Shown piece after piece: positions 8,992-55,998 of a stretch of 64,000 nucleotides of DNA. Both the position numbers and the translations under genes were made by a program. The stretch is from an uncultured Nitrospiraceae bacterium (GTDB lineage: Bacteria; Nitrospirota; Thermodesulfovibrionia; Thermodesulfovibrionales; Dissulfurispiraceae). Each line of letters starts with the position of its first letter. The first letter of the stretch is position 1. A model generated the notes under the pieces. The model saw only the letters and a list, made by a program, of their open reading frames with translations, searched no databases and was not told the origin of the DNA. The stretch is taken from NCBI GenBank assembly GCA_963705105.1, contig CAVPIW010000010.1:64001-128000 (forward strand). The letters run 5' to 3'.

Positions 8992-9471
8992 GGGAAGGCT
9001 GATGTGGTTCAAAGCGTTTCCGCTAAGATACCTTAATCGTCACCAGACCACACTTTGCCGTGTCTGTCGATACCAAAAGCCCGGCAGGCAGCAGGCGCTG
9101 AACACCTTGAGATGTGCACATTGCCTCATACGCCTGACCGAAAGGCGGGGTGAAGCACCGAAAAGCATCGGTGCTGCGAAACCGCTGCCTTCCCGTGGAG
9201 AGTACGGAAGCACAACTGTCGATGATACAGAGGATGAAATGTTTAAAATCCAATAATAAATAATCATGCTCGCTATCAGCGAGGCTTTGAGGCGCTTCGC
9301 CCCGCTTTCTGTGCATCTGCCAAAATGATCCTCATATCGCATTGGAAAGGCTTTGAACCATATCTGCCTTCCCGGAGGTAGCGCCACTATGAGCAAGGCT
9401 TTGAGGCACATCGCCCCGCCTTTCTATGCAACTGCAAGGCTATCTCACGCAAAGTCGCAAAGAGCGCAAAG
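8992..9471. repeat. Nested element: E2 shell containing E1, then an extra E1 right arm and a cgcaaag-type short repeat
   Basis: E2 IR gggaaggctgatgtggttcaaagcgtttcc / ggaaaggctttgaaccatatctgccttccc; inner aaaggcgggg...ccccgcttt; near-identical to 46356-46747. Confidence 0.9.
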
Positions 9472-9489
9472 AAAGAAATGCCGGTCCTG

Positions 9490-10950
9490 TCAGCGGCCCT
9501 CTGCCTGCACCGTCAGGTAGATCGATGAGCCGTTCCGGTGGACGTGGAGAAGGATATCGCGCCCCTCCTTGATTTTCGACACCGTCGCCAGGTAATCCTT
9601 CACGTTCCGCGTCGCTTTGCGCTCCACCTCCATGATGATGTCGTTTCTCTTCAGCAGGCCGGCGGCAGGGGCGTCTTCGCTGATTGCCGTGACAATGACC
9701 CCGTTGACTTTTCTTGCGACGCCGAGGCGCTTCCGCGACTCCGGCGTCAGGTCCTGGACGCTCACTCCCCTGAGGTTGTTTCCGACTGACGGCGCGCTTG
9801 TCCGGGCCTCCTGCGGGATTTCGGTTATGGTCGTTTTGACCGTCACGGGCTTTCCGTCCCTCAGCAGTTTGATGACCACTTCCTTGCCCGGGGCGGTCGT
9901 TGCAACCATGTTCCTCAGGGCCGGGGCGTCGCCGAACTCTTTGCCCCCGTACTCGGTGATCACGTCACCCCTCCTGATGCCCGCTTTCTCCGCAGGACTG
10001 CCCCCGACGACATCCCCGACGAGGGCGCCATTGTCCCCCCTGACGCCGAGCTGATTCGCGATCTCCGGCGTGATGGGCTGCATCGAAACACCGAGATATC
10101 CCCGGACGACGCGGCCCTTCTTGACGAGGTTGTCCATGACGACCCGTGCCATGTTGCTCGGGATGGCGAAACCGATGCCCTGGTACCCCCCGGACGTGCT
10201 GAATATGGCGGTGTTGATACCCACCAGCTCTCCCCGGACATTGATGAGGGCGCCCCCGGAGTTTCCGGGATTGATGGGCGCATCGGTCTGGATGAAGTCC
10301 TCATAATCGGCGATGCCCACATTGGCGCGGCCCGTGGCGCTGACGATGCCCGAGGTGACGGTCTGATTGAGGCCGAAGGGATTGCCGATGGCGATCACCA
10401 TCTCGCCCACCCTTAGCCTGTCGGAATCTCCGAGCTTGACGGACGGCAGCCGGTTCGAGTCGATCTTTATGACGGCGATGTCCGTCTTGGGGTCCGTGCC
10501 GACCAGCTTTCCCTTGAATTCCCTCTTGTCGGACAGCCGTATCCTTATGTCATCAGCGCCCTTGACGACGTGGTTGTTCGTCAGGATGAAGCCGTCACGG
10601 TCGACGATGACGCCCGAACCGAGGTGCATCTGCCGGCGCTCCTGCTGACGGTCCTGGTTCCGTGACTCGTCTCCGAAGAACCTCCGGAACATGGGGTCAT
10701 CGAAAAATTGAGACGACTGCCGGGACTTCACTTTTCTGGACGTCGAGATGTTCACGACAGCGGGCTTGACTGCGGCGGCAACCTCGGCGAGGGCCTGGTT
10801 CGTCCGCGTCAGGATGTCGATCGACTCCTTCGAGATCTTCGGCTCCTCCACGGCCCCGGCAATCCCTGCGCCATGCCATGAATCAGTGACAGACAGCATG
10901 CACGAGAGCAACAGTACGAGCACGGCAACCTGTTGTGTAACCCTCTTCAT
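9490..10950 (-). CDS. degQ: HtrA/DegQ (Do) serine endoprotease with two PDZ domains
   Basis: LTNNHVV, DIAV, IQTDAPINPGNSGGAL catalytic motifs; signal peptide; start set at 10950 after RBS ggaggg. Confidence 0.92.
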   Translation of the reverse strand: MKRVTQQVAVLVLLLSCMLSVTDSWHGAGIAGAVEEPKISKESIDILTRTNQALAEVAAAVKPAVVNISTSRKVKSRQSSQFFDDPMFRRFFGDESRNQDRQQERRQMHLGSGVIVDRDGFILTNNHVVKGADDIRIRLSDKREFKGKLVGTDPKTDIAVIKIDSNRLPSVKLGDSDRLRVGEMVIAIGNPFGLNQTVTSGIVSATGRANVGIADYEDFIQTDAPINPGNSGGALINVRGELVGINTAIFSTSGGYQGIGFAIPSNMARVVMDNLVKKGRVVRGYLGVSMQPITPEIANQLGVRGDNGALVGDVVGGSPAEKAGIRRGDVITEYGGKEFGDAPALRNMVATTAPGKEVVIKLLRDGKPVTVKTTITEIPQEARTSAPSVGNNLRGVSVQDLTPESRKRLGVARKVNGVIVTAISEDAPAAGLLKRNDIIMEVERKATRNVKDYLATVSKIKEGRDILLHVHRNGSSIYLTVQAEGR

Positions 10951-10974
10951 ATCGTTTCCCTCCGTAAAAACACA

Positions 10975-11150
10975 ATTATTTAAACCGGAAATCAAACAGA
11001 TGAACCGTACCATAAAACTACTTTCATGTCATTCCTGTTTGTCGCCAATCTTTCTAAGAAGGATCCCGGACAAGCCGGGATGACAAATACAGAAATGGAG
11101 CATGTTACCTTGCTATACTATCGATCTCCTTGGTAATTGCCGGGTAATAA
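10975..11150. repeat. Degenerate copy of the 6356-6511 palindromic element
   Basis: right end ggtaattgccgggtaataa; inner tgtcattcc...cccggacaagccgggatgaca. Confidence 0.7.
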
Positions 11151-11208
11151 TCAACCTCAATGCTGCAAACGCCGGACCAAAAGGGTGGGGCGAAGATGCC
11201 ACCGTAAC

Positions 11209-11664
11209 AGTCATCAAGTCATTGAGTCATTGAGTTATTGAGTCACTGGTAGCCGACAGTCTGCACCAAGCCACGAACGCACGACGGGAAGGCTGATGTG
11301 GCGAAAAGCCTTTCCGCTAAGATACCTTATTGATCCCCAGACCACCCTTTGCCGTGTCGATCGATGCCAAAAGCCCGTGAGGCAACAGGCGCTGAACACC
11401 TCGATATTATCATCGCATTGGAAAGGCTTTGAACCATATCTGCCTTCCCGGAGGTAGCGTCACTATCAGCAAGGCTTTGAGGCACTCTGTCCCGCCTTTT
11501 CATGCAACTGCAAAGTTATCTCACGCAAAGCCGCAAAGATCGCAAAGATCGGCAGTGACTTAATCAACCCAATCAACCCAATCAACCCAATCAACCCAAT
11601 CAACCCAATCAACTCAATCAACTCAATCGACTTAATGACTCAATGACTTAATGACTCAATGACT
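11209..11664. repeat. Composite: inverted 8-mer arrays (AGTCATTG / CAATGACT) flanking E2 plus E1 right arm and a 9-mer array (TCAACCCAA)
   Basis: 8-mer repeats at 11209-11245 and reverse complements at 11629-11664; E2 at 11286-11451; 9-mer x7 at 11563-11626. Confidence 0.9.
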
Positions 11665-12810
11665 TGTCTTTTCGGTGATGTCCTTGTCCAGCCTGTCTAT
11701 GCGCACCTCCTGCAGCAGGGAAATGAAACGATCCGATCCGATCGGGTTGTCCCGCATGCCGAAAAGATGGGTCCTGCAGGAGCAGTCCGATGACCCGAAA
11801 CCGGGCACTGACCAGTCGGCGATGTTCTCCATCATACCCGCAATGGCGCATTCGAGACGGGCCGTTCCCCGCACAGGCAGGGCCGCCACGAACCGGGTCT
11901 CCTTCCGGAGGTAGTCGATATGCCAGCGCAGCGTCTTTCGCACGCGCCTGTGACGTTCAATCCTGGCGGTCAGGTTTCTCCGTCCCGACCCCACATAGAT
12001 ATAATAGCCCTCCGGGAAGTCGATCGCACCGCGGTCACCGATGACGATCTTTCCGGGATGTTCCCGACGGAGGATGACGAGGTAGCTGCCCTCGTCACGG
12101 GCCTCACGGCCGATGACGTCCCAGGGAATATCGAGCGTGCGGACATCGTCGCCGAGGGTCAGGTCCTCTTTCCAGCGAACAGCGATGGCCCGTATCAGGA
12201 TATCATTCCTTAATTCGTACAGGGTCCGGGAAAAATCAAAGTCAGTATGGTAATCGGGCATGAAGTATCGCACATGGGGTGAATGGACGAGAAAAAGCAC
12301 GCCGCCTTTCGTTCCTCGTTCCTTCAGACCGGCCAGTTCCACGAGATGCCTCCGACCCCTTTCCGTCACCGCATCGGGAAACATAGCAATCTCCCTGCCA
12401 AAAAGGGTGCATGACTTCACCTCCAGGACGAGGTCTTCCCGGTCGTCACGGAGCAGAAAGTCGAACCGGCTGCTGCCCATGGAGACCTCCCGCCTCACGA
12501 CACGATACCCCTCGAAGCCGGGCAGCATCCCCTTGCGTATGAGAAGATCGGCGACGCTGTTTGTTTGATGCGTGTGAAGCATGACGGGGGAACCGTCGCG
12601 GTCGACGGCGATGCAGGTGTGGGACAACATGCCGTCGCGGCGCGCATTTTCGACAATATGGACGGTCCTGCCCGGGAGGAGCAGATCCCGGAGCCTCCCG
12701 GGGTTGGGGAGATAGGCCCGAACGGTCTTCCCCTGCACGTCGCACTCTATGACAAACCGGTTCGGCCTCCGGAGAAAAAGGGCATTCTGGGCTGTATCGA
12801 ATAGTTTCAT
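11656..12810 (-). CDS. sfsA: SfsA DNA/RNA nuclease fused to a DUF123 (GIY-YIG-like) domain
   Basis: RRPNRF, YLPNPGRL, SRFDFLL, EVKSCTL, MFPDAVTERGRRHL; C-terminal YIYVGSG, WHIDYL, GFGSSDCSCRTHL. Confidence 0.9.
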   Translation of the reverse strand: MKLFDTAQNALFLRRPNRFVIECDVQGKTVRAYLPNPGRLRDLLLPGRTVHIVENARRDGMLSHTCIAVDRDGSPVMLHTHQTNSVADLLIRKGMLPGFEGYRVVRREVSMGSSRFDFLLRDDREDLVLEVKSCTLFGREIAMFPDAVTERGRRHLVELAGLKERGTKGGVLFLVHSPHVRYFMPDYHTDFDFSRTLYELRNDILIRAIAVRWKEDLTLGDDVRTLDIPWDVIGREARDEGSYLVILRREHPGKIVIGDRGAIDFPEGYYIYVGSGRRNLTARIERHRRVRKTLRWHIDYLRKETRFVAALPVRGTARLECAIAGMMENIADWSVPGFGSSDCSCRTHLFGMRDNPIGSDRFISLLQEVRIDRLDKDITEKTSH

Positions 12811-12876
12811 GGTCATTAAGTTACTGTATCATTGGTCGGCGTCCGACGGTTGTTACCAGGCCAAGAATATGCGGGC

Positions 12877-13246
12877 GGGAAGGCTGATGTGGTGAAAAGC
12901 CTTTCCGCTAAGATACCTTATTCGTCACCGGACCACACTTTGCCGTGTCTATTGATGACAAAAGCCCGTCAGGCAACAGGCGCTGAACACCTTGAGATGA
13001 CATATTTCTTCATAGGCCCGACCGAAAGCGGGGTGAATGCGCCGAAAAGCATCGGTGCTGCGAAACCGCTGCCGTCCCGTACAGACCATTTCGGGCTGGC
13101 GGCTGAAAAAAGGTGAACCTTTTGCTGACACTCACACTGCCACTGACACTGTTTTTCAGAGCGCTTCGCCCCGCCTTTCGGCGCATCTGCCAAAATGGTC
13201 CTCATCATCGCATTGGAAAGGCTTTGCACCATATCTGCCTTCCCGG
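12877..13246. repeat. Nested E2[E1-variant] element
   Basis: E2 ends at 12877 and 13245; inner E1 with acactcacactgccactgacactg hexamer module shared with 40452-40639 and 55797-55998. Confidence 0.9.
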
Positions 13247-13354: not shown

Positions 13355-14623
<1,269 letters not shown>

Positions 14624-16888: not shown

Positions 16889-17232
16889 AACCTTATCGTT
16901 GCAATAGGACATCCGGAAAGGCGGGGCAAAGATGCCTCTAAACAGTAGACAATAGACAGTCGACAATAAACAGGAACCAAAGACAAAGGCATGGCGGGAA
17001 GGCTGATGTGGCGAAAAGCCTTTCCGCTAAGATACCTTATTGATCCCCAGACCACCCTTTGCCGTGTCGATCGATGCCAAAAGCCCGTGAGGCAACAGGC
17101 GCTGAACACCTCGATATGTCGTATCATCGCATTGGAAAGGCTTTGAACCATATCTGCCTTCCCGGAGGTAGCGTCACTATCAGCAAGGCTTTGAGGCACT
17201 TTGTCCCGCCTTTTCATGCAACTGGAAGGTAA
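16889..17232. repeat. E1 left arm, short agacaat repeats, E2 and E1 right arm (E2 nested within E1)
   Basis: aaccttatcgttgca...aaaggcgggg at 16889-16927; 16996-17222 nearly identical to 11286-11510. Confidence 0.9.
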
Positions 17233-18889: not shown

Positions 18890-19870
18890 ATGGAAAAAGT
18901 CCTCATCCTCCTCGGTCCCACGGGCGTCGGGAAAACAGGTCTTTCCCTCACGATGGCGGAGCATCTGAAGACCGAGATCATCGGCGCAGATTCGATGCAG
19001 GTCTACCGGTTCATGGATATCGGGACGGCGAAGCCTTCGGTGGAAGAGCGGGCTGCTGTGAGGCACCACGTGATCGATATCATCGACCCCTGGGAGAGGT
19101 TCAGCACCGGCCAGTACATCAAGTCCGCCGGCCTGATCATTGACCGGCTCATCGGAGAGGGGAAGATACCCCTCGTTGTCGGGGGGACGGGTCTCTATAT
19201 CAAGGCAATGACAAGGGGCATCTTTGCGGGTCCCTCCGCCGACTGGACCCTGAGGCACTCCCTGGAGGAACGGGAGAGCAAAGATCCGGGCTCGCTCCAC
19301 GCGTACCTTCAGGCCCTCGATTCCAACGCAGCATCACGGATCAATGCGACCGACATCAGGAGGATCGTCAGGGCCGTGGAGGTCTGCCTCCGGGGCGGGC
19401 GGTCGATCTCGGAGCTCCATGCCGCCTCCACGCGACCCCTGCCCTATGAGTTTCTGAAAATCGGCATCACGAGGGACCGGTCAGAGCTGTACCGCATGAT
19501 CGAAGAGCGGGTGGACCTGATGATCCGGCAGGGCCTGGTCGGCGAGGTAAAGGCCGTGATGGCGCGGATTGAGGCTCACGGGGGGGCAGGCTATGATATC
19601 ACGAAACTCTCATCGATGCAGGCGATCGGGTACAAGGAAATCGCTCTTTATCTTTCAGGCGAAATCGGGATTGACGAGGCGGTGCATCTTGTCAAGAAGA
19701 GAACGAAAATGTACGCGAAGCGTCAGTACACCTGGTTCAGGAAGGAGGAGGGCATTCACTGGGTGGACGTGACGGGCATCCTCGACCCCGCCGGGATGTG
19801 GAAAAAGGTCTCACCTGTCCTTGCCGATCATCCTTATCATTGCAATGGGATATCCGGAAAGGCGGGGTGA
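18890..19870 (+). CDS. miaA: tRNA dimethylallyltransferase
   Basis: [43 protein letters not shown]. Confidence 0.96.
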
Positions 19871-20043
19871 ATGCGCCGAAAAGCCTCGGTGCTGCGAAAC
19901 CTTTGCAGTCCCGTACAGACCATTTCGGGCTAAAGGTCGATGACACAAAGGAGGAATTCCCGATACACCAATAATAAACGATCACACTCGCTATCAGCGA
20001 GGCTCTGAGGCGCTTCGCCCCGCCTTTTCATGCAACGACAAAG
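19831..20043. repeat. Stand-alone E1 element between convergent miaA and lpxK
   Basis: ccttatcattgca...aaaggcggggtgaatgcgccgaaaagcctcggtgctgcgaaacc...ccccgccttttcatgcaac; similar to 43775-43990. Confidence 0.9.
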
Positions 20044-21063: not shown

Positions 21064-21087
21064 ACATTAAAAACAAAACCCCTGAAA

Positions 21088-21190
21088 GAAAGCAAAAGTG
21101 GCAGTGTGAGTGAGAATGAAAGGGAATGACAAGAGTGACATTGACAGTCCTTCGGGTTATGAAGAAAGCAAAAGTGGCAGTGTGAGTGCG
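21088..21190. repeat. Direct repeat x2 with hexamer-like periodicity
   Basis: gaaagcaaaagtggcagtgtgagtg at 21088 and 21164. Confidence 0.75.
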
Positions 21191-21269
21191 GGTGTGAAAA
21201 AGACGGTTCGTCCTCATGCCCCATCCGCGTCAAGGCGAAGAGTTGGTATAATGGAGTGAAGGAGCTGAA

Positions 21270-23464: not shown

Positions 23465-23509
23465 CCCCCTTTCGGCCGGCTATTCCTGAAGGCGTATGCG
23501 ACGATAAGG
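23465..23509. repeat. Partial E1 left arm (reverse)
   Basis: ggcgtatgcgacgataagg matches 37234-37252. Confidence 0.6.
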
Positions 23510-23951: not shown

Positions 23952-24187
23952 GGGTGAAATTATACCACAAAAAACCTGGACTTATGCCCACGCTGACATA
24001 AGTGATCAGGTCATGACTCTGCGCATACGAAAAAAAAGAGCCGTCATAGAATGTGCCGATTCGACATAGGGATGACTATACTCACTGATTTATTCTCATT
24101 TCTTCCCTGTCAAAAAATAGCAGTCATGACTCAACAATCAAGTATGATGCCCCCGGAATTCCAGAATTCTGGCACCGCTACGCCATA

Positions 24188-25583
24188 TATGATAACGTTC
24201 AGGACATCGTTAACTGTTTTTACGTTCAAGACATCGTTTACTCTCGTTCTTTGACATTGAAATAGCCACAGCCAGGTATATCATGAACACCCAATTCTTT
24301 TGCGGAGGTGTTCATGAAGAAGAATATCCTGCAGCAGAGAGTATTAGCAGTACGACGATACATAGAGGGCGAAAGTCCGCGAGACATCTGCTCTTCATTG
24401 GGAAAGACGAAGCCGTGGTTGTACAAATGGGTTGCACGGTACATTCCGGATGATCCGACATGGTTTGAAGATTGGTCCCGGCGACCTTTTACCAGCCCCA
24501 CACATACTCCTGAGGAGATCGAAAAGATCGCAGAGATGGTTCGGTTGAGCCTGTACAATAAAGGCGTCTTTTGCGGTAATCAGGCCATCCAGTGGGAGAT
24601 GATCGACATGGAGATCCAACCGCTCCCTTCCCTGAGCACCATCGGTCGTATCTTGCGCCGACTCGAATTGACTCATCGACGGACCGGGAGATATGAGCCC
24701 AAGGGGAAGAAGTATCCCGAACTTCCGGCGCTTTTGCCCAATCAAACGCACCAAGTTGATCTGGTTGGTCCCTGTTACCTTACCGGCCCAATCAAGTTCT
24801 GCAGCCTACATGCCGTTGATGCCGCAATCAACCGGTGTGGGATCGAGCCGATACCTTCACGCGCGGCGCAAAGCGTTGTGGATGCTGTTTACGCAATTTG
24901 GCTGCGGATGGGAATCCCGGAGAATCTTCAAGTGGACAACGAATGGGCCTTCTTTGGAAGTCCGGCGCACCCGCGAGGCATGGGTGCGCTTATTCGCCTT
25001 TGCCTGCGCTACGGCGTTCACCTCTGGTTCATTCCACCTTCGGAGCCATGGAGGAACGGGGTCGTCGAGAAATTCAATGATCATTATGAGCAGAAGTTTC
25101 TCGCCAAGGTCATGATGACCTCTAGGGAACAGCTTGACCAGGAATCGCTTGCGTTCGAGTATATGCACAACAGCACCTATCGCTATAGCAAGATCAAGGG
25201 AAAAACTCCTCTCAAAGCATTGGCTGACACAGAAAGGAAATTAATCTTCCCGAGCAAGAGTGATACCCCAAGAAATCCCTTGGATAAGCCGGAAGAGGGT
25301 TACTACCACTTCGTGCGATTCATTCGAAGCGATTGCCGGCTAAACATCTTCGGCGAAATGTTTCCTATTCCCCCGGAGACCCAGTACGAATACGACGTGG
25401 CTACTGTCGATGTCAAAGATCAAAAGCTGAAGCTCTTCCTGGACAGGCCCCAGGTCGAAGAATACAAATAGCAACTGCTGACTCATGATAAAGGTCACGG
25501 GCATCGTGAAATGCATCGCCCCAACGAGAGTAAACGATGTCCTGACCATTTCTTAAGCAAACGATGTCCTGAACGTTGTCACA
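24188..25583 (+). mobile_element. IS481-like insertion sequence
   Basis: Long imperfect TIRs with internal repeated units (tatgataacgttcaggacatcgtt...aagacatcgtttactctcgtt / aacgagagtaaacgatgtcc...aacgatgtcctgaacgttgtcaca); right end ACA. Confidence 0.8.
24314..25471 (+). CDS. DDE integrase-core (rve) transposase
   Basis: N-terminal HTH (WLYKWVARY), HQVDL, LQVDNE, WRNGVVEKFN. Confidence 0.88.
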   Translation: MKKNILQQRVLAVRRYIEGESPRDICSSLGKTKPWLYKWVARYIPDDPTWFEDWSRRPFTSPTHTPEEIEKIAEMVRLSLYNKGVFCGNQAIQWEMIDMEIQPLPSLSTIGRILRRLELTHRRTGRYEPKGKKYPELPALLPNQTHQVDLVGPCYLTGPIKFCSLHAVDAAINRCGIEPIPSRAAQSVVDAVYAIWLRMGIPENLQVDNEWAFFGSPAHPRGMGALIRLCLRYGVHLWFIPPSEPWRNGVVEKFNDHYEQKFLAKVMMTSREQLDQESLAFEYMHNSTYRYSKIKGKTPLKALADTERKLIFPSKSDTPRNPLDKPEEGYYHFVRFIRSDCRLNIFGEMFPIPPETQYEYDVATVDVKDQKLKLFLDRPQVEEYK

Positions 25584-26733
25584 TATAAGCTTCGCCAGTC
25601 AGCAATAGTGAGGCTATCTCGGGTTTAGAACTGCGCAAATCATTGAGCGAAGTAATGTAGCGTTTTGGCTCTGCCTGTGGAATTGCGATCCCATAATTGT
25701 TTTCAGACGTGGGAGGTCTCACCTCAAAACAAGCCAAACCAACCCCTAACGTTATTAGTTTACTGCCCAGAGGGGTTACTACAAGTCGACACCCACCAAG
25801 CATGTTTAAGCTATCGCGGTAGCGACACATCGCCGAATACATCTGACGATAAGCCTCAAAGGGATTGTTTTCATGAGCATAGAGAATGTTAGTTGTCGGC
25901 ACCTTTCTCACCCCAAACAAAGGACGCATGTATTCCACCAGCAGTTTATCGCCTCTTCTCAGGTCATTGGAAGGATGCGGAACTACCGGGCATATTTCAG
26001 CAGTGTCAGGGATTACTGATACCATCACCTTTTCGAACTGACCCATACGATTTTCACCAAGAATGGGAAACCAAACAAGAGGCCAGTCTTGCATGCTCTC
26101 CGAATACAGAGCACTTGAATATCCAGGGATGAGCACCAGATCGTTGCTGGGATCGTCAGATTGTATACGCCCATCGAGCGAAGCATCTTGTCCAACAAGT
26201 ACTTGAAAGTTAATCCCCTTGGCCCCTAAGGCATCCGGAGTCTTAATAGGCATAACTTTGTGAAGAATGGCGGTCAAAAGAGTTAGATAAACGGTTCGTG
26301 GCAGAGAACTGACATCTAAGATAATGTCAGTCTGATCACCAACGTGCGACAACACTTTCATCATTCCAATCGAAAGTATGTTACTTGCACTAAGATCAGT
26401 TTCCTCGACCAGGGATGAGTCAAAACTGATTTCATGCACTGAGCCGATTTCCCGGAAAAGCTGTTGAATTTCTCGAGCGTTCTGCTCGGTCTGCTCAATG
26501 AGGGCATCGTCGAGTTCGTATCCTGTGAGGCCGACCAACAACAATCGAGCCTCCTCAACCTTGTGGCCGTTTGAGCGCATGTTTTGTAAAAACTCAGATA
26601 GCACTTTCTGAGCCCTCACGTCGAATCCTCGTCCACAGATGTACAACAAGCGAATAACACGATCTCTGAACAGGTCGTCCCACAGATCGTGTACGCTGTC
26701 ACCCATCCTAAAGACGTAATTCTTCCAGAGCAT
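25579..26733 (-). CDS. Uncharacterised alpha/beta protein, last gene of the putative conflict operon
   Basis: Starts 2 nt after the ATPase stop; IILDVSSLPR and VVTPLGSK motifs; stop codon overlaps the IS end. Confidence 0.75.
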   Translation of the reverse strand: MLWKNYVFRMGDSVHDLWDDLFRDRVIRLLYICGRGFDVRAQKVLSEFLQNMRSNGHKVEEARLLLVGLTGYELDDALIEQTEQNAREIQQLFREIGSVHEISFDSSLVEETDLSASNILSIGMMKVLSHVGDQTDIILDVSSLPRTVYLTLLTAILHKVMPIKTPDALGAKGINFQVLVGQDASLDGRIQSDDPSNDLVLIPGYSSALYSESMQDWPLVWFPILGENRMGQFEKVMVSVIPDTAEICPVVPHPSNDLRRGDKLLVEYMRPLFGVRKVPTTNILYAHENNPFEAYRQMYSAMCRYRDSLNMLGGCRLVVTPLGSKLITLGVGLACFEVRPPTSENNYGIAIPQAEPKRYITSLNDLRSSKPEIASLLLTGEAYM

Positions 26734-32739: not shown

Positions 32740-33989
32740 TTATAATGGCAGCAGGAGCCCCACGATCGCCCCTGCCATGCAGGTGGAGAGTGTTCCCACG
32801 ATGATGGACCTGATCCCGAGTGAGACTATTTCGTCCCGCCTCTCGGGCACCATGCCGCCCATCCCGCCGATCATGATCCCGAGGCTGCCGAAGTTGGCGA
32901 AACCGCAGAGGGCATAGGTCATGATCACCCTGCTTCTCGGGCTCAACGTGCCTTCCGGCAGTCCGGCGAGGTCGAGATAGGCGATGAATTCATTCAGGAC
33001 GGTCTTTGTCCCCATCAGTGCGCCTGCTGCCTGCGCCTCCTGCCAGGGGATGCCGATGAGCCAGACGACGGGCGCCATGACCATGCCGAGTACCCGCTGG
33101 AGGGTCACGGGACGGCCGCCGATCTCAGGCAGCAGGGTCAGCATTTGGTTGGCGAGGCTCACGAGGGCCACGAGGACGATGAGCATTGCGATGATGTTGA
33201 TCAGGAGATGGATACCTTCCATCGTGCCTTTTGTGATTGCATCCATCGTGCTCGTTGCGGTCTGCGGGGGGACGAGTTTTCCCGAGGTGACGCTCCCCGT
33301 CCCGGGTATGAGGATCTGGGACAACATGATTGCGGCCGGTATGGTTATGATCGACGCCGTGAGGATATGCCCCATCGCATCGGGGATGACGGCCCTCAGA
33401 ACGCTCGCATAGAGCACCATAACCGTGCCGGCTATGCCCGCCATGCCGCAGGTCATGGTGACAAACAACTCGCTTCTCGTCAATTCCTTCAGGTATGGAC
33501 GAATAAAGAGAGGCGCCTCGATCATCCCGAGAAAGACATTGGCCGCCGCCCCGAGGCCGACGGCGCCGCCCACGCCCATGGTCTTTTGGAGCGCCCAGGA
33601 AAAGGCCCTGACGATGACGGGGAGATGCGCCAGTAAAAGAGGAGAGAGGAGAGGGCGCTCACCACCAGGACGAGCGGGAGGGCCTGGAAGGCGAAGAGGA
33701 AGCTTGACACTTCAGGCTTCACCTCGAAGGGAAGGGCGCCGCCTCCCAGATAACCGAAGACGAAAGACGTGCCCGCTTTCGTGGCCTCTTCGAGTGACAT
33801 GACCATGCCGTTCAGCAGGTGGAAGAGCTCTTTGAAGAGAGGGAGCCTGAGCATGAGGAAGGCGAAGATGAACTGCACCGCGAGACCCGCGAGGATTCCT
33901 CTCACCCTGACGCCCCGTCTGTTCTCGCTCAAAAGCCAGGTGACGGAGATAAGCACCACGATGCCGAATATGGTCTGCGCGATGATCAT
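32740..33989 (-). pseudogene. nupC: Concentrative nucleoside transporter (NupC/CNT), 1-nt deletion near 33625
   Basis: GTSFVFG, AANVFLGMIEAPL, MAGIAGTV, KTVLNEFIAY, YALCGFANFGS; two overlapping frames. Confidence 0.88.
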
Positions 33990-35225: not shown

Positions 35226-36732
35226 CTCAACTTTCGCACATAGAAATCTGGAGCGGGGCACTGAGAAATGAGGGCAGAGCACCCATAAAGTTGGTCATAA
35301 ATTGCTCCAGTCTTCGGGAGGAGAGTGAAAGAAACCTCCTCAATTCTTCCTTCAGCACGTCCATGACGATAAGCATTGCATCCACAAACCCAAGGCCCTG
35401 TGCCTCATCGCAATGAGCATAAAAGAGCATCCCGATCGTTCGAGGGTCCTCACTTTCCCGCTTTTCCATCGCCAGCATGATGTACCGGCAACACACAATC
35501 GTTGTATGAGCGATCATCGCGTCATACCGCCGCCCCATGAACTCCTTCGCAAGCTTCAGGTGCGATTTCGCCATCTTGAAAAATACCTCGATGTCCCACC
35601 GCCTCCCATAGGTCGTGATGATGTCCTCGTCACTCAGTGCCGTATCCGTCGACAAGACGGCAAGCCACTTCCTGCTCCTGCGGTCCCGCACAAACACGAT
35701 CTTCGCCTCGACGACCTTTCCTTCCTCATCAACGCCGAGCCTGACAATGACGGATGCCAGAACCTTCGCCCGTCCCCTTTTCTTCCTTACAGAGGCATAC
35801 AGTTTGCTCAGCGTCACTTTCCTGTCCCCAGAGCCGTACAAGACTTTGGTATCTTTGAGCATGCAAATGCAATGAAACTTCTCCTTCAGGACGTTCATGA
35901 TCACGGAGGGGCTCGAAAACCACCGGTCAAACAACACATACTGCGCGTCAATCCCGGACGTCTTGATCTGTTTGATCAGGTCAAACATCGTCTCCGTTGC
36001 CTTCTTGATGCTTTCCGCCCGCCTCTTGTATCCGTTGGTCCGTTTGTCAATCTCGTTGTTCATTTCGCAGAGGCGATTGTCCGCCTTCACCGAGCTCAGC
36101 AGAGAAAACGCCACAGGCAGAAAACTCACCCCGTCAGACCAGCCCACCGTCAGCATCCGGAATCCCCGGCGGTATTTCTGCTCACAGTGATCGTACACCC
36201 GTGCCAGAAGTTCCACCACCTTGCTCCTGTTCCGGCTGAACAGGGAATCATCGATGATGAGCACCTTGATCCTCTCCGCAGAGGTCAATGTTGCGACCCG
36301 GTCTTTGATGATCGATGCGCTCAGCAGCAACAGAAACTTTCTCCAGTTGTAGCGAGACGAGTTCAAGAACCGATACACCGGGTCTTTGCCCGGATGGCCC
36401 TCAGCCGCTGCCATGTGCAGTGTTCGATACAGGTTCTTTCCTGTAAATACCAACAAAAAGATAAAGCGAAACAATGCAGCGCAGGGGATACCCCGCTCCT
36501 TGGTGAAGTTGGACTGCTTGAGAATCCGGGCGACATGATGGGTGCGGAGAAATGTGCTTGCGTAATTCTGAACATCCTCATTTTGTGGTACAATGCTCAT
36601 AGAACATCCCCTCCTCGTCTTTGTATGTTTCGCGACAATATTGTACAAGGTTTGGGGATGTTCTTTTTAGTTTTTTCTGTTCATTCCCTTATCAGACGCC
36701 TTTTCATGACGGTTTTCTATCTGCGAAACTTG
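35226..36732 (-). mobile_element. IS4-family-like insertion sequence with target-site duplication
   Basis: TIR tcaactttcgcacataga / tctatctgcgaaacttga; direct repeat aatggataa at 35217-35225 and 36733-36741. Confidence 0.9.
35227..36600 (-). CDS. DDE transposase (IS4 superfamily)
   Basis: LIIDDS, VLFDRWF, YGRRWDIEVFFKMAK (YREK motif). Confidence 0.92.
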   Translation of the reverse strand: MSIVPQNEDVQNYASTFLRTHHVARILKQSNFTKERGIPCAALFRFIFLLVFTGKNLYRTLHMAAAEGHPGKDPVYRFLNSSRYNWRKFLLLLSASIIKDRVATLTSAERIKVLIIDDSLFSRNRSKVVELLARVYDHCEQKYRRGFRMLTVGWSDGVSFLPVAFSLLSSVKADNRLCEMNNEIDKRTNGYKRRAESIKKATETMFDLIKQIKTSGIDAQYVLFDRWFSSPSVIMNVLKEKFHCICMLKDTKVLYGSGDRKVTLSKLYASVRKKRGRAKVLASVIVRLGVDEEGKVVEAKIVFVRDRRSRKWLAVLSTDTALSDEDIITTYGRRWDIEVFFKMAKSHLKLAKEFMGRRYDAMIAHTTIVCCRYIMLAMEKRESEDPRTIGMLFYAHCDEAQGLGFVDAMLIVMDVLKEELRRFLSLSSRRLEQFMTNFMGALPSFLSAPLQISMCES

Positions 36733-37047: not shown

Positions 37048-37254
37048 TGGCAAATGAAAAGGCGGGGCGAAACGCCTCAAAGCCTTGCTGAAGGCGACGA
37101 TACGCCTCGTCATCTTCGTGTTTCAGGATTTCACTCTTTGTGTCATCGACCATTAGCGTTTAGTTCATCTTTCGTTTTGATACAGGTGTCGCCGCAGCAA
37201 GGTTTTCGGCGCATACACCCCGCCTTTCCGGATGGCGTATGCAGCGATAAGGTT
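37048..37254. repeat. E1 element, reverse orientation
   Basis: aaaaggcggggcgaaacgcctcaaagccttgctga...ccccgcctttccggatggcgtatgcagcgataagg. Confidence 0.85.
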
Positions 37255-39136: not shown

Positions 39137-39369
39137 TTTTACCTCCTTGAGATCATGAAGTGTTCATCACGCATTCTCAATGGACGACTCCGGCGGCATC
39201 GCATGTTGAAGTGGCGAAGCCTCCTATCACCTCCTTCTTGTCGCACAAACAGATCTTCTGAAAATATGCCTCCGCAACCCCGGCATTTCCAAGCCTGTTT
39301 CCATTATATATGACAAGCTCAAATATTCATAATCGGCGAAGATATCCTAAATGCTTTCTTGAGACGATG

Positions 39370-39727
39370 TGAGCGGTCTCACAACGGCAGCAGGGTCAGC
39401 ATTTGGTTGGCGAGGCTCACGAGGGCCACGAGGACGATGAGCATTGCGATGATGTTGATCAGGAGATGGATACCTTCCATCGTGCCTTTTGTGATTGCAT
39501 CCATCGTGCTCGTTGCGGTCTGCGGGGGGACAAGTTTTCCCGAGGTGACGCTCCCCGTCCCGGGTATGAGGATCTGGGACAACATGATTGCGGCCGGTAT
39601 GAGGCGCCTCGATCATCCCGAGAAAGACATTGGCTGCCGCCCCGAGGCCGACGGCGCCGCCCACGCCCATGGTCTTTTGGAGCGCCCAGGAAAAGGCCCT
39701 GACGATGACGGGGAGTATGCGCCAGTA
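39370..39727 (-). pseudogene. nupC: Internally deleted second copy of nupC
   Basis: Near-identical segments to 32731-32755, 33128-33343 and 33510-33635. Confidence 0.9.
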
Positions 39728-40384
39728 CTTGCTCGATGCAGATGACAATATGGCAGCTTCTGTTCGGAAAACTGTTCACTTCTGTGTAAAACTCCGCACA
39801 AACAGGAACGACCCTCGCAGAAAGTCCAAGAAAGGGATTTCACTGAACCGCTATCAAAATCATTGGGTTCTAACAGGGCAGGAGAAGGCCGCTTCCTGTG
39901 GAATGGTAATTGCTCAAGTGACTGAGCATCGGCGAGACTGACCTTATCTGCCCGACGAGTGAACGCGGTTCATCCGGCATGATGGATCTGCTGCCAAGCA
40001 AGGGCGAAGGGTTCGGAATCCAACGCCAACAGGGCGTCTCAAAAAGACGTGAGGGAAAAATGGGAAGAACGGTTGTAGCAGGATTTGCTGCGGAAGGCGG
40101 TGATGGGGAGACAATGACACATACGAAGAACTCTTTCGGAATGACAAAAGAAAGGATGATCATCTTCTATCCCGACAGGATTTCAATTGAGACCCAGGGG
40201 TCTGTCCCTCTCTCATGGAAAAGCAAGATAAAGAGCTTCATACAACGTCTCAGACAGTCCTGGCAGCTCCCAAGACCATGAATCATAGTCACTGAACGCC
40301 TTTGGGAAAAGATGACGGCGGCACGCACCACATCAGCCCTCCCGTCCGGGTGTTCGCGGTCTGCTTCCGGCTGTCGACGACCAG

Positions 40385-40639
40385 TGACTTAATGACTGTT
40401 ACGGTGGTATCTTTGCCCCGCCTTTTCATGCGACCGCGAGGTTAACGTCCAATTGCATGAAAGGGCGGGGCGAAGCGCTCTGAAAAACAGTGTCAGTGTG
40501 AGTGTCAGTGTCAGTAAAAAGGCTCACTTTTCGGCCATTGGCTTGAAACGCCGTCATTTGCGATGTTATAGGTGTCGCCGCATCAAGGTTTTCCGCGCAT
40601 ACACCCCGCCCCTTCAGTCCGGCGTATGCAACATTAAGG
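40385..40639. repeat. 8-mer repeat, E1 right-arm fragment and reverse E1 variant
   Basis: gacttaatgact; ccccgccttttcatgcgac; ttgcatgaaagggcggggcgaagcgctctgaaaaacagtgtcagtg...ggcgtatgcaacattaagg. Confidence 0.85.
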
Positions 40640-41912
40640 TTAACTTCGCGCCGGGGCGAGGAGTTCGAGGACCTTTTCAACGGCCTTTTCCGTCGCACCG
40701 GCATTATCCTGAACGATCCTCTTCGCCGCAGTCCCCATGGAGGCCCTGAGGTCCGGCTCCGAGAGGAGGCGGAAAAGGATGTCGTACAGGCCGTCCCGGT
40801 CGGTGTGCACTGCCGCTCCGCGGCGGTAAAAGTCCTCGGCAAAGGGGAAGTTCTCCATGTGGGGGCCGCAGACGATCGCTTTGCCCCAGCATGCCGGCTC
40901 GAGGGGGTTCTGCCCGCCGTGTTCGATGAAGCTCCCGCCCATAACCGCTATATCGGCAGCCCCGTATGCCGCGGCGAGCTCGCCCATGACATCGACAAGG
41001 ACGACGGACCCCCTGATGTCCCCCCCGCTTCCCTCAAGGATGTCTGACCGCCTGATCACAGTCACGCCGCGGTTCTTCAGTATAGTCCTCCACTTCTCCG
41101 AACCGCTCGGGATGCCTCGGCACGACGATCAGGTTGAGATCGGGGAAACGGGACAGCAGCCTCACATAGGCGTCGACGACAAGGTCTTCCTCCGTCCTGT
41201 GGGTGCTGCCTGCAATGATGACAGGCCCGGCGAGGCGTTCCGACCACGCCGGCGGGGCAGGAGGCGCGAGGACGTCGAACTTGAAATTGCCCGTCACGGT
41301 CACACGGTCCGCAGGGGCGCCGAGCATTCTGATCCGTTCCGCATAAGTGTCGCTCTGCATGCAGAAGAGCCTGATGAGCCCGAGCGTCTCTTTCATGAAA
41401 AACCGTACCCTCCGGTATCCCGAGAAGGACCGGTCGGAGATCCTGCCGTTCACGAGCGCAACGGGGATCCCCCGACCGCTTGCCATCCGCACGCAGTTGG
41501 GCCAGAGCTCCGTCTCCATGATCACGAGGAGGGCGGGGTTGATCCGCCTCAGGGCGCTGCTGATGATGCCCGGCAGGTCAAAGGGCATGTAAAAGATGTC
41601 CGCCACGGCGCCGACGCGCTCCCGGGCGACCTTCTGTCCCGTGTCGGTGACTGTCGACAGGGCGATGCGCAGGTCGGGCCGGCGAGCTTTCAACGCCTTG
41701 ATGAAGGGGACCGCGGCCGCCACTTCGCCGACTGAGACGGCGTGGATCCACAGGCAAGGCCCTTTCTGTTCCCGCTGCGACAGGGAAATACGACCCGTCC
41801 TCTCCCGTATCCACCGATTGCGGACCTCTGTTGGTCTCTTGAAATATTCGACGGGAAGAAGTATGGTCAGGGCGATTCCGTAGAGGACTGTGTACGCGCC
41901 GGAAAGGAACAT
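40640..41912 (-). CDS. waaA: Kdo transferase, apparent frameshift near 41083
   Basis: WIHAVSVGE, METELWPN, NGRISDRS, AGSTH, PRHPERF; then MGEL, GGSF, GGQNPLEPA, GPHMENF in another frame. Confidence 0.9.
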
Positions 41913-43774: not shown

Positions 43775-43990
43775 AACCTTGTCGCCGCAATGAGATGTCC
43801 AGAAAGGCGGGGTGAATGCGCCGACAAGCCTCGGTGCTGCGAAACCTTTGCCTTCCCATAAAGACACTATTAGGCTCATGATCGATGTCACAAAGGGTGA
43901 ATTCTTGATACACCATAATAAACGATCACACTCGCTATCAGCGAGGCTCTGAGACGCGTCGCCCCGCCTTTTCATGCAATGGATGGGTTA
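43775..43990. repeat. E1 element between lpxB and msbA
   Basis: aaccttgtcgccgca...aaaggcgggg...ccccgccttttcatgcaa. Confidence 0.9.
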
Positions 43991-46316: not shown

Positions 46317-46355
46317 TCCCTTTCTATCATAATAGTATCGATATGCTCATATATC

Positions 46356-46747
46356 ACCGGACCACACGTTGCCGTGTCTGTTGATGCCAGAAGCCCGTCA
46401 GGCAACAGGCGCTGAACAACCTGAGATGACATATTTCTTCATACGCCCGACCGAAAAGCGGGGTGAATGCGCCGAAAAGCATCGGTGCTGCGAAACCGCT
46501 GCCTTCCCGTGGAGAGCACGGAAGCACAGCTGTCGATGATACAAAGGATGAAATGTTTAAAATCCAATAATAAATAATCATGCTCGCTATCAGCGAGGCT
46601 TTGAGGCGCTTCGCCCCGCTTTCTGTGCATCTGCCAAAATGATCCTCATATCGCATTGGAAAGGCTTTGAACCATGTCTGCCTTCCCGGCATCAGCGTCG
46701 CATTCAGTAAGCCTTCGAAGCACTTCGCCCCGCTGTTCCTCTGCAAC
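46356..46747. repeat. Nested E2[E1] plus E1 right arm (E2 left end truncated)
   Basis: Near-identical to 9040-9432. Confidence 0.9.
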
Positions 46748-46755
46748 GGGACTGT

Positions 46756-52511: not shown

Positions 52512-53659
52512 AACGGCTCGTCATCCTCGGCTCGACAGGGTCGATCGGGAGGAGCGCTCTCGAAGTGGTGTCGCAATTTCCCGGCCTCTTTCAGGTGACG
52601 GGCCTGACGGCGGGCGGGAATGTCGCCCTCCTCAGGGAGCAGATCGGGCGGTTTCGTCCCGACGTCGTCGCCGTCAATGACGAGTCGTCCTGGCGGGACC
52701 TCAGGAAAAGCCTCGCCGGTCCGGGGGCGCCCGAGATACTCTGCGGCGCGGAAGGGATAACCACCGTCGCCGAACTGCCCGGAACGGATACGGTCCTGTC
52801 GGCGATCGTCGGCTCGGCAGGGCTTATCCCGACACTCGCCGCCGTGAGGAAAGGAAAGACCGTCGCCATCGCAAACAAGGAGACCCTCGTCATGGCAGGC
52901 TCCCTCGTCATGGCGGAGGTGAAAGCCTCAGGAGCGACCCTGCTCCCCGTCGACAGCGAACACAGCGCCATCTTCCAGTGCATAAACGGCCGGCGCGACT
53001 CCGTGAGGAAGATGATTCTCACCGCGTCGGGAGGGCCCTTTGCGGGACGGACACGGAAGGAGCTGCAGCATGTGTCTCCCGGCGAGGCCCTCAATCATCC
53101 GAACTGGAGCATGGGGAGGAAGATCACCATCGATTCCGCCACCCTCATGAACAAGGGCCTGGAGGTGATCGAAGCCCACCACCTCTTTGACATGCCCGCG
53201 CCGTCGATCGACGTCGTCATCCATCCCCAGAGCATCATCCACTCCATCGTCGAGTTCCATGACGGGAGCTATCTCGCCCAACTCTCCAGGCCGGACATGA
53301 AGGGACCGATCGCCATGGCCCTCGCCTATCCCGAAAGGCTCCGTTCCGTCATGGAGCCCCTCGACTGGGACAAACTCTCCCGCCTTACCTTCCGGAAGCC
53401 GGATACGGGGACTTTTCCCTGTCTCAACCTGGCCTATCGGGCCGTGGCATCGGGGGGGACCCTTCCGGCCGTCCTGAACGCCGCGAACGAGGTGGCCGTG
53501 CAGGCCTTTCTCGACGGGGTTATCGGTTTCAACGACATACCTGTTATAATAGAAAAAGTTATGAATTCTCATGACATTCAGTCTGCAGGCAGACTGGGGG
53601 ATATACTTGAAGCGGACCTTTGGGCGAGGTCGCAAGCGGGGGAGGCGGTGAAGCGATGA
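52508..53659 (+). CDS. dxr: 1-deoxy-D-xylulose-5-phosphate reductoisomerase
   Basis: LGSTGSIG, ANKETLV, PVDSEHSA, HPNWSMGRKITIDSATLMNKGLE. Confidence 0.97.
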   Translation: MKRLVILGSTGSIGRSALEVVSQFPGLFQVTGLTAGGNVALLREQIGRFRPDVVAVNDESSWRDLRKSLAGPGAPEILCGAEGITTVAELPGTDTVLSAIVGSAGLIPTLAAVRKGKTVAIANKETLVMAGSLVMAEVKASGATLLPVDSEHSAIFQCINGRRDSVRKMILTASGGPFAGRTRKELQHVSPGEALNHPNWSMGRKITIDSATLMNKGLEVIEAHHLFDMPAPSIDVVIHPQSIIHSIVEFHDGSYLAQLSRPDMKGPIAMALAYPERLRSVMEPLDWDKLSRLTFRKPDTGTFPCLNLAYRAVASGGTLPAVLNAANEVAVQAFLDGVIGFNDIPVIIEKVMNSHDIQSAGRLGDILEADLWARSQAGEAVKR

Positions 53660-54726
53660 CGTTTCTGTCGGCTATACTTCTTTTCGGGTTTCTCATCTTC
53701 ATCCACGAACTGGGGCACTTCATCTTCGCCAAGCTGAGCGGCGTCAGGGTCCTCAAATTTTCCCTCGGTTTCGGGCCCAAGGTCATCGGGAAAAAAATCG
53801 GCGAAACGGAGTATCTCCTGTCGGCGGTTCCCCTGGGCGGCTACGTGAAAATGCTCGGCGAGGAGACGGAGGATGAGGTGGACGACTACGACGAGAGCCG
53901 CTCCTACAAACATCAGCCCGTCCGAAAGAGGGCGCCGATCATTCTCGCCGGACCAATCTTCAACATCATGACGGCTGTCGTCATATTCTTCTTCCTTTTC
54001 CTGGGCGGCATCCCGGCCCTCCTGCCCGTCATCGGCGAGGTCATGCCCGACACCCCGGCCGGCAACGCGGGGCTCCAGAAGGGAGACCGGATCCTCGAAA
54101 TCGACGGGACAACTATAGCGCAGTGGACCGACATGACGGAGATCATCTACGCCAGCGCCCGGAAGCCCCTGACCATCAGGATCCAGCGGGCGGGGGAAGT
54201 CTTCACGAAGGAGATCGTGCCGGACAGCAAGATGGTGAAGGACATCTTCGGAGAGGAAAGGGAGGTGGGCCTCATCGGCGTGAAGCCCGCGGGCGATACC
54301 TTCGTCATCCGGGAAGGCCCCGTGAGCGCCCTGAAGAACGCCTTCGTCAAGACCTGGGACATCTGCGCCCTCACCCTCGTGGGCATCGTCAAGCTGATCC
54401 AGCGGATCATACCGGCCGACACGATCGGCGGACCCATTCTCATCTTCCAGCTTGCCGAGAAGCAGGCGACGGCGGGGGCCATGAATTTCTTCACCTTTGC
54501 CGCCGTCATCAGCATCAACCTCGGCATCCTGAACCTCCTGCCCATCCCGATCCTCGACGGCGGGCATCTCGTTCTCCTCGGCATCGAGGCGATCCGGAAG
54601 AAGCCCCTGAGCGAACGGGTCGTCCTCATCGCCCAGCGCATCGGCATGGCCCTCATCATCACCCTTATGGTCTTCGCCATGTACAACGACATCTTCAGGC
54701 TCATCACGGGAAAACCCCTTCCCTAG
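53656..54726 (+). CDS. rseP: RIP metalloprotease RseP
   Basis: HELGH, PLGGYVKM, PDZ domain, NLLPIPILDGG. Confidence 0.95.
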   Translation: MTFLSAILLFGFLIFIHELGHFIFAKLSGVRVLKFSLGFGPKVIGKKIGETEYLLSAVPLGGYVKMLGEETEDEVDDYDESRSYKHQPVRKRAPIILAGPIFNIMTAVVIFFFLFLGGIPALLPVIGEVMPDTPAGNAGLQKGDRILEIDGTTIAQWTDMTEIIYASARKPLTIRIQRAGEVFTKEIVPDSKMVKDIFGEEREVGLIGVKPAGDTFVIREGPVSALKNAFVKTWDICALTLVGIVKLIQRIIPADTIGGPILIFQLAEKQATAGAMNFFTFAAVISINLGILNLLPIPILDGGHLVLLGIEAIRKKPLSERVVLIAQRIGMALIITLMVFAMYNDIFRLITGKPLP

Positions 54727-54734
54727 GGCTTCTC

Positions 54735-55199
54735 ATGCGCCCTGCAACGCTCAAACACCTCCACTCGGCAGGCGGCGTCCTGTACCGCAGACGGCATGAT
54801 GCCGCCGAGATCGCCCTCATCGCGCTCAAGGGAAAGTCCGTCTGGACCCTGCCCAAGGGGCTCATCGACAGGGGAGAGCAGCCGGAAGCGACGGCCGTCA
54901 GGGAGATCATCGAAGAGACAGGCCTCACAGGCAGGATCGTCGACCTGCTCGGAGAGCGGTCCTACTGGTTCTTCCTGAAAGATGACAACGTCAAGTGCCG
55001 GAAAACCGTGACCTACTACCTGCTCGAGTACGTCAGCGGCGACATCGAGAATTACGGGTGGGAAGTCGATGAGGCCCGGTGGTTCCCCATCGACGAGGCG
55101 GTCGGAAGGGTGTTCTACAAGAGTGACCGCGAGATTCTCCGGAAAGCCGGCGAGAAGATCGCCCGGATCCGGGACTCCTCCGGCCCGTCAGGGACATGA
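54735..55199 (+). CDS. NUDIX hydrolase
   Basis: SAGGV, LPKGLIDRGEQPEATAVREIIEETG Nudix box. Confidence 0.9.
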   Translation: MRPATLKHLHSAGGVLYRRRHDAAEIALIALKGKSVWTLPKGLIDRGEQPEATAVREIIEETGLTGRIVDLLGERSYWFFLKDDNVKCRKTVTYYLLEYVSGDIENYGWEVDEARWFPIDEAVGRVFYKSDREILRKAGEKIARIRDSSGPSGT

Positions 55200-55663
55200 G
55201 CAAGGTCGCCGGGCGCAACGCCCTGAAGGAGACCGTCGACGGCCTGAAGGCACTCGGCAAAAAGATCGTCTTCACGAACGGGTGTTTCGACCTCATCCAT
55301 GTCGGCCATGTGAGATACCTCCGGGAGGCGAAGGCCCTGGGCGACGTCCTCGTCGTCGGGCTGAACTCCGATGATTCCGTGAGGAGGCTCAAGCCGAACA
55401 GGCCTGTCATCCCCGAGGCCGAGAGGACCGAGGTGCTGGCCGCCCTTGAAATGGTGGACTATGTAACCCTCTTCCACGAAGATACCCCCTATGAGCTCAT
55501 CAGTCTGCTGCGGCCGGACGTCCTTGTCAAGGGAGGGGACTGGAAGAAAGAGGACATCGTCGGCGCCGACATCGTCCCTGACGTCCGCAGCCTCCCCTAT
55601 GTCGACAACATCTCGACGACGGGCATCATAGAGAGGATCCTCGCCCTCCCGCGCAGCGGGTGA
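55196..55663 (+). CDS. rfaE2: D-glycero-beta-D-manno-heptose 1-phosphate adenylyltransferase
   Basis: FTNGCFDLIHVGH, GLNSDDSV, VKGGDW, STTGII. Confidence 0.92.
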   Translation: MSKVAGRNALKETVDGLKALGKKIVFTNGCFDLIHVGHVRYLREAKALGDVLVVGLNSDDSVRRLKPNRPVIPEAERTEVLAALEMVDYVTLFHEDTPYELISLLRPDVLVKGGDWKKEDIVGADIVPDVRSLPYVDNISTTGIIERILALPRSG

Positions 55664-55796
55664 GACTAATCGCCCCGTCACGCTGTGACTGCCGCCACCC
55701 GAACTACGTGGATACATCAGGCGGGGACTATGCCATACGGGTGGGCCGAAAGCGCCGGAGTGAAAAACGATCAGCTATCCTCGCTCAGCTGTATCA

Positions 55797-55998
55797 ACCT
55801 TGAGTTGCATAAAAAGGCGGGGCGAAGCGCTCTGAAAAACAGTGTCAGTGACAGTGTGAGTGTCAGCAAAAGGTTCACCCTTTTTCAGCCGCCGGCCTGA
55901 AATGGTCTTTATGGAAAGGCAAAGGTTTTGAAGCACCGATGCTTTTCGGCGCATTCACCCCAGCCCCGCCTTTCCAAAAAGCATATGCAACGATAAGG
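55797..55998. repeat. E1 variant, reverse orientation
   Basis: aaccttgagttgcataaaaaggcgggg...gcatatgcaacgataagg; reverse complement of the inner element at 13020-13180. Confidence 0.88.

Follow-up and report, generated by a model that had tools for sequence, protein, structure and literature searches.

What are the short repeated segments that fill the junctions between genes in the stretch of DNA considered here, and by what means did they come to lie there? The stretch (the window) comprises 64,000 nt of contig C10 of G000, a genome of the Nitrospirota order Thermodesulfovibrionales assembled to 4.23 Mb in 19 contigs (99.4% complete), for which our own gene caller gives a coding density of 75%. 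A sequence-only reading of the window had described about 12 full or partial copies of a family of inverted-repeat elements made of two shells, E1 and E2, and had proposed a non-autonomous mobile element and/or a structured RNA. Matches to a family profile are present at all 12 coordinates named there, and the end and arm motifs of E1 and E2 are present as they were written. [quoted passage not shown] Very probably, E1 has been moved in trans, in cut-and-paste fashion, by a DDE transposase of the IS1380 family that is absent from the assembly. E2 is a paralogous core without ends and probably spread as cargo of E1.

The mobile nature of E1 is indicated by its genome-wide properties. A search with the family profile finds 714 family loci in G000, and these occupy 156 kb, or 3.7% of the genome. 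The 573 left and 595 right ends of E1, numbers far beyond chance, form 435 pairs, of which 422 are shorter than 500 bp and contain no transposase; their modal length is 212 bp (211-213 bp in 171 pairs, 194-195 bp in 31). The exact E1 end pattern occurs 166 times in G000, not once when read backwards, and not once in 400 other genomes of the phylum. Logos of the ends have sharp borders at CC...GG and background outside them except for a TNNA 4-mer, while the terminal inverted repeats are imperfect. In the duplication test, which used 245 pairs with well-matched ends and shuffled flanks as a control, identical 4-bp flanks were found in 127 pairs as compared to a shuffled mean of 13.5 and maximum of 24. 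Duplications of 1-3 and 6-9 bp were not enriched, and those of 5 bp only weakly (4 vs. 0.2). When all 422 short pairs are taken together, 158 carry a 4-bp duplication, which is TNNA in 126. The non-autonomous mobile element proposed earlier is supported by the duplications, the terminal repeats, and the many short copies devoid of genes.

Not one of the 422 short pairs is located within a called gene. Among the 419 copies that could be placed, 57 lie no more than 1 nt from a stop codon, which the TNNA target often contains. The nearest-neighbour identity of E1 copies has a median of 92%, with three identical pairs among 316, which argues that most of the spread is old. The sites of the copies at 37.2, 43.8, and 46.4 kb of the window are also occupied in relatives: contigs of three independent sequencing runs (96-98% identity) continue from the flanking genes into these copies.

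The ends of E1 point to a specific source. Insertion sequences (ISs) of the IS1380 family have CC tips and 4-5 bp duplications. The CC tip of E1 is shared with ISEcp1. When ISs were searched under the requirement of CC and with a bonus for duplications, 9 of 30 rows had duplications of 4-5 bp. Three intact elements of relatives (L124, L126, and L127; 1520-1655 bp, 60-77% identical) score 224-241 bits on NF033539, the model of IS1380 transposases, the cut-off of which is 180 bits. The E1 ends match the left end of L126 at 13 of 14 bases and the right end of L125 at 12 of 13. A MITE end of relative G392 matches L127 at 16 of 16 bases, and in relative G450, where an IS1380 transposase is split over two contigs, the first 13 bp are identical to the ends of the MITEs of the same genome. 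The L126 group is 25% identical to ISEcp1 and belongs to a large subfamily (of 8000 proteins scored, 5549 reach E<=1e-100). Judging from these end matches to ISs with an IS1380-family transposase, E1 ends probably derive from an IS1380-type IS.

The sequence-only reading saw no cognate transposase in the window, and the same applies to the whole G000 assembly, as an IS1380-type candidate was found in neither. Searches of G000 gave no match to PF13701, only weak cross-matches of NF033539 to IS1634, and a best E value of 0.074 in tblastn with three cognate proteins. None of the 15 PF01609 matches has E1-like ends, and none of the 13 E1 pairs longer than 500 bp contains a cognate transposase, although one contains IS1634 inserted into E1. 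The transposase may have been lost from G000 or may be unassembled. As to other transposable elements, an IS1634-family element with five genome copies is located inside a composite E1 microsatellite module (G000:C10:240792-243138) and is flanked by a 5-bp duplication; another copy of this family adjoins an E1 end at C6:934049. A 415-aa protein, putatively an IS256-family transposase, is encoded in 18 copies on several G000 contigs.

In the case of E2, the earlier view of an independent second shell was not upheld. Among the 112 complete E2 cores of G000, 93 are 164-169 bp long and 16 are 361-386 bp long with a decayed E1 inside. No target duplication of E2 was detected at 25 offsets with five lengths tested, and no terminal repeats of its own were found. 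E2 aligns with the core between the terminal repeats of relatives' elements, and the inner arms of E1 are a paralogue of E2. Since 87 of the 112 cores have E1 parts adjoining on the same strand, and 10 of 43 composites carry 4-bp duplications (16891-17229 of the window among them) while E2 itself has none, the composites appear to have moved as E1 units. On this evidence, E2 is not a second shell but an ancestral, order-wide core carried inside E1. As such, it would represent a MITE core that re-amplified after the loss of its own ends.

The nesting described earlier was confirmed, as E1 alone, E2 inside E1, and E1 remnants inside E2 were all observed. So were the interchangeable central modules: simple E1 copies join one of two 5' modules (B1 or B2) to one of two 3' modules (C or D) in all four combinations (135, 65, 62, and 18 copies), which suggests recombination among copies. 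The hexamer microsatellite that constitutes module D is also found elsewhere in G000 next to a gene for a four-helix-bundle protein (TIGR02436), at locus L170 (G000:C9:319916-320239), where long microsatellites of this type lie on both sides. The hexamer module alone occurs at 54 G000 loci.

A sequence model made from 28 copies was run on 126 genomes of the order and 124 genomes outside it. Homologues were detected in 39 of the former, in 8 of 13 families, and in one of the latter. Copies in relatives are 209-216 bp long with TNNA duplications, and 4-bp duplications were found in seven other genomes. Scans with the exact pattern found nothing in viral contigs and metagenome contigs and at least 54 loci, mostly chance ones, in genome contigs; BLAST gave one short chance match in plasmids and none in phages. 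Two small contigs of G000, C3 and C1 (outlying G+C of 67% and 46%), contain no family copies and are possibly foreign. In relatives G044 and G416, the same core is also found between ends of a second type, which resemble the ISs L109 and L110, whose transposases are 20-25% identical to those of the L126 group. A third end type surrounds this core at L099, L095 (G021, G041), L161, and L164 (G032), with a 5-bp duplication in L099; no IS matching it was found among the IS1380 loci fetched.

The core has several constant features. Counted from one E1 tip, a short motif lies at 36 bp (161 of 194 copies); counted from the opposite tip, it lies at 46-47 bp (217 of 256 copies); in other lineages it lies at 35, 46-47, or 56-57 bp, i.e., in steps of about one helical turn. 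A sub-terminal stem occupies offsets of 36, 47, and 57 bp under two different IS1380 end types. The left end of ISEcp1 contains the same 11-mer at bp 35 that E1 contains at bp 36, and in ISEcp1 this 11-mer falls inside a match to the consensus of integration host factor (IHF). Among 38 IS1380 ends, the best motif match lies at bp 35, 36, 46, or 47 in 12, compared to 2.7 expected, although these kin are not independent. One IHF-alpha-like gene is present in G000. The spacer between the inner stems measures 85-92 nt in most lineages and is unstructured. Over 29 representatives, three to four Watson-Crick pair types occur at each position of the outer stem, the closing stems covary across lineages, and tandem G-A pairs are kept in 18-19.

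The motif offsets, the position shared with ISEcp1 and other IS1380 ends, the spacer, and the second end type speak for a core that serves as DNA architecture, but there are competing explanations. An unlikely yet conceivable one is that the MITE is the same, but its core persists because IS1380-type transposition, occurring at the replication fork, requires one DNA strand to adopt a long hairpin, a single-stranded intermediate joining the ends. The varied pair types and tandem G-A pairs are in line with it, as is the excess of G-T over A-C wobbles in the stem (52 vs. 21); however, a sign test by position gives p=0.057, a comparison of stem and interior wobbles gives p=0.025 or 0.22 depending on the setting, and in the terminal repeat the bias is reversed (39 vs. 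86), so that raw wobble counts are confounded by lineage. Resident G000 copies have 17.5 private changes per 1000 sites in the stem vs. 44 in the terminal repeat and 45 in the interior, and 22 compensatory vs. 4 non-compensatory double changes in the stems, but mosaic copies inflate the latter counts and can mimic such changes. Strand bias with respect to replication (see below) and the use of the same core under two end types with so dissimilar transposases also agree with a folded strand, while the movement of variants devoid of half the stem, the absence of the long hairpin from autonomous elements, and the fact that DDE enzymes normally act on double-stranded ends do not. The most far-reaching version of this idea, which we hold to be doubtful, is that the core of ~165 bp acts as a portable chassis for transposition. 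It would comprise a strand-specific hairpin, an unstructured spacer of fixed length, and helically phased protein sites, would be usable by any IS1380 end type, and would have been selected because IS1380 transposition proceeds via a single strand that folds at the replication fork. If true, it would expose a mechanism of the IS family responsible for the spread of CTX-M genes. Template switching between the arms of quasi-palindromes, an established mechanism, can produce covariation as well as the G-A and G-T effects with no selection. Movement of E2 as an independent element that leaves no target duplication (HUH/RAYT-like or IS110-like) and targets E1 copies is still less probable. A length of exactly 168 bp is found in 74 E2 cores, among which the similarity is 89%, compared to 42% (ungapped) among their left flanks, and 25 of the 112 cores have no adjoining E1 part, as such movement would have it; however, 41 of the 43 E2 cores inside E1 pairs are oriented as E1, the E2 flanks carry a weak common consensus, and in relatives E2 aligns with a core located between IS1380-type ends. 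Finally, AAC-N6-GTT can be read at both ends and the bulges of the arms are strand-specific, as would be expected of dispersed integron attC-like recombination sites, a reading whose probability is close to nil. It was dropped because the outer AAC/GTT bases are not invariant core boxes but part of the 4-bp duplication, which varies; the ends, moreover, match IS1380.

It is quite unlikely that the core is a functional structured RNA, an RNase III-type processing or stability element of co-transcribed operons spread by a MITE, as proposed for Correia/NEMIS in the available part of PMC2229807. The covarying closing stems and tandem G-A pairs would suit an RNA, and the strong folding expected from the sequence-only reading was found: the composite at 16891..17229 folds at z -5.9 on the plus strand and z -4.3 on the minus strand. 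Folding as RNA is, however, equal on both strands (-128.2 vs. -126.5 kcal/mol). In 14 representatives, poorly aligned, neither a conserved fold of the interior (empty consensus, mean z -0.23) nor a three-armed fold was recovered; folding of an alignment of 28 copies yielded no more than 10 outer pairs. The Rfam search proposed as a check found no catalogued family, with no match in the window at the gathering score and only a tRNA and two chance matches at 12 loci of relatives. The location of copies speaks for an RNA in that 297 of the 419 placed copies lie between co-oriented genes and 57 adjoin stop codons, but gaps between co-oriented genes already constitute 78% of all gene pairs. As regards orientation, the sequence-only reading held that the copies, with two exceptions, keep the same sense in the mRNA. 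Five minus/minus junctions of the window do carry the element on the plus strand, but the copy at 55797 is at a convergent junction and not at a plus/plus one, and genome-wide the rule fails: 142 copies between co-oriented genes are sense and 155 antisense (p=0.49), with 106 vs. 118 within 300 bp and 27 vs. 44 for E2. With respect to the replication strand, inferred from third-codon GC skew, which is noisy in a draft assembly, E1 is biased 185 to 129 (p=0.002) and E2 63 to 28, and the genes lean the opposite way. The local run of one direction in the window can arise from this bias. Equal folding of both strands, the lack of an Rfam match, and the lack of a sense bias make regulatory RNA the weaker reading, and with their random orientation to neighbouring genes the repeats are most likely selfish DNA.

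The reading of E1 as an IS1380-mobilized MITE has its own difficulties. Transposition is inferred from the duplications, since no clean empty site was found among the 15 of 158 joints listed; a depth-matched contig of run X3 that may skip the gap at 55.7-56.0 kb was left out of the count. An identical 4-bp flank accompanies only one of the three intact cognate ISs, and the MITE-rich genomes G211, G027, and G019 contain no close homologue of the transposase. The long hairpin core is absent from most cognate IS ends, so it is not a simple deletion product. Variants of 194-195 bp with one motif missing and composites of 331-399 bp also carry duplications, which indicates that neither the geometry nor the full hairpin is strictly required. 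In resident copies, conservation of the stems exceeds that of the terminal repeat 2.5-fold, and on one strand the stems prefer G-T over A-C; neither is clearly predicted by template switching alone. The motif, a predicted site, agrees with the E. coli IHF consensus at only ~7 of 9 positions. In the part of PMC3971601 available, IS1380 peptides are described to bind the beta clamp, and little orientation bias of IS1380 is reported.

For this same reading, we propose that an IS1380 transposase would have acted in past bursts and would then have been lost or left unassembled. Insertion at TNNA (stop codons included), combined with purifying selection, would have restricted the copies to intergenic gaps, and recombination among hundreds of copies would have swapped interior modules and let microsatellites expand. 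Other steps have roughly even chances of being right: the sub-terminal motif ~36 and 47 bp from the tips could be a site of a DNA-bending host factor (IHF-like) or of the transposase that helps the ends of a short element to meet; the long arms might stay complementary mainly via arm-to-arm template switching; and a beta-clamp motif of the transposase might tie insertion to the replication fork. The sequence QLDLF is present in all three intact transposases.

The copies of the window illustrate most of these forms. The intact composite at 16891..17229 (plus strand, 339 bp) is an E1 with E2 inside (core at 16996-17163) and TAAA duplicated on both sides. A composite of the same order at 11155..11515 (plus; E2 core 11286-11449) has a degenerate left end and no target duplication. 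In the composite at 8992..9439 (plus), an E2 core with a decayed E1 inside (8992-9373) is followed by the right part of E1, the left terminal repeat not being found; the E2 core at 12877..13244 (plus) also encloses a decayed E1, of B2-D interior, and has no outer terminal repeats. The composite at 46346..46754 (plus), the site of which is also occupied in run X3, has no E2 left arm and comprises the E2 middle, a decayed inner E1 (46429-46638), the E2 right arm, and the E1 right part. Simple E1 copies are located at 19832..20043 (plus, 212 bp, B2-C interior), adjoining the lpxK stop codon; at 37050..37252 (minus, B1-C), with a decayed CAG-type end and a contig of run X7 continuing from the flank into the copy; at 43777..43987 (plus, 211 bp, B2-C), between msbA and lpxB at a site also occupied in relatives; and at 55797..55998 (minus, B2-D), adjoining the stop codon of a gene located at 55999-57015. 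Another simple E1, at 40445..40639 (minus, ~195 bp, B1-D), has TTAA on both sides and lies head to head with a truncated composite at 40326..40441 (minus; inverted repeats I8, I16, and I22), which consists of an E1 end, a microsatellite linker, and an E2 left arm. Unpaired or weak remnants are a solo CAG-type E1 end at 6027..6080 (minus, profile match of 45 bits) and a solo TCG-type end at 23483..23509 (minus, 19 bits). Of the neighbouring genes named earlier, degQ-like, sfsA, ahcY, asd, leuB, lpxB, and msbA-like genes were confirmed, and gnnA/gnnB fits by family only. The LpxK encoded in the window has its named homologues in Thermodesulfovibrionales/Nitrospirota.

The same gaps are also densely filled by other families of micro-repeats (window 6090-6160, 6393-7218, 9440-9475, 11025-11085, 11520-11660, and 21080-21200), namely hairpins of REP-like type, an inverted pair separated by 714 bp, and tandem repeats of 7-9-mers. 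The gene of the Kdo transferase waaA (window 40640-41912) is split over two frames into pieces of 292 aa and 141 aa; near 40700 relatives differ at many bases, and the split may represent a frameshift or an assembly error. Near-identical pieces of a nucleoside-transporter-like gene (216 and 115 bp) are duplicated 6 kb apart, at 33128-33624 and 39347-39779. E1-like ends are absent from both an IS481-like element, which has inverted repeats of 64 bp, and an IS4-family transposase (24185-25586 and 35227-36666).

No description of IS1380-derived MITEs, of Nitrospirota MITEs, or of the E1/E2 family was found in the literature, a search outside which lies ISfinder, where IS1380 MITE entries may exist; the available sections of a 2024 review (PMC10969869) mention neither IS1380 nor Nitrospirota. 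The family is a new and very abundant orphan MITE of an ordinary kind with an unusual portable core. MITEs as such are ordinary, but 3.7% of the genome is a heavy load compared to the up to 2% given in the part of a review available (PMC9330008). The E1 family would provide IS1380 transposases with minimal substrates of natural origin, and from it a testable map can be drawn of the features required at their ends, namely the tip, a motif located 35-36 or 46-47 bp away, and perhaps a hairpin.

Among known systems, REP/REPIN elements moved by RAYT were rejected as an identity, because DDE-type duplications and IS-matching ends are present. E1 resembles IS1380 ISs (ISEcp1 and the Thermodesulfovibrionales elements L124, L126, and L127) in its CC...GG tips and 4-bp duplications, in ends of 13-16 bp near-identical to those of the L126 group, and in the motif TCAAAGCCTTG located 35-36 bp from one tip in both E1 and ISEcp1. 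It differs from them in having no transposase, in its size (~212 bp vs. 1.5-1.65 kb), and in its long complementary arms, which the autonomous elements do not have. As far as partial sources allow comparison, MITEPye1 is linked to IS1182 (PMC11578231), and the Correia/NEMIS elements of Neisseria are likewise intergenic multicopy MITEs, with an IHF site and hairpin transcripts (PMC2229807), but they have a TA duplication and other ends, and IHF binding and RNase III cleavage have been reported for them. Chunjie of Geobacter uraniireducens, as outlined in the accessible text of PMC10969869 and PMC3184786, is of similar size (178-235 bp), has many partial copies, and can sit inside operons; its terminal repeats are of 21 bp, its duplications of 9 bp, and its copies number ~95, compared to ~13-17 bp, 4 bp, and ~700 loci here. 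QMITE2 of Coxiella and ERIC, the latter with up to 711 copies according to the portion of PMC10969869 available, also have truncated copies that lose their ends and resemble REPs. Compared by description only, they differ from the family described here, in which an end-less core appears to have been re-amplified inside a sister MITE.

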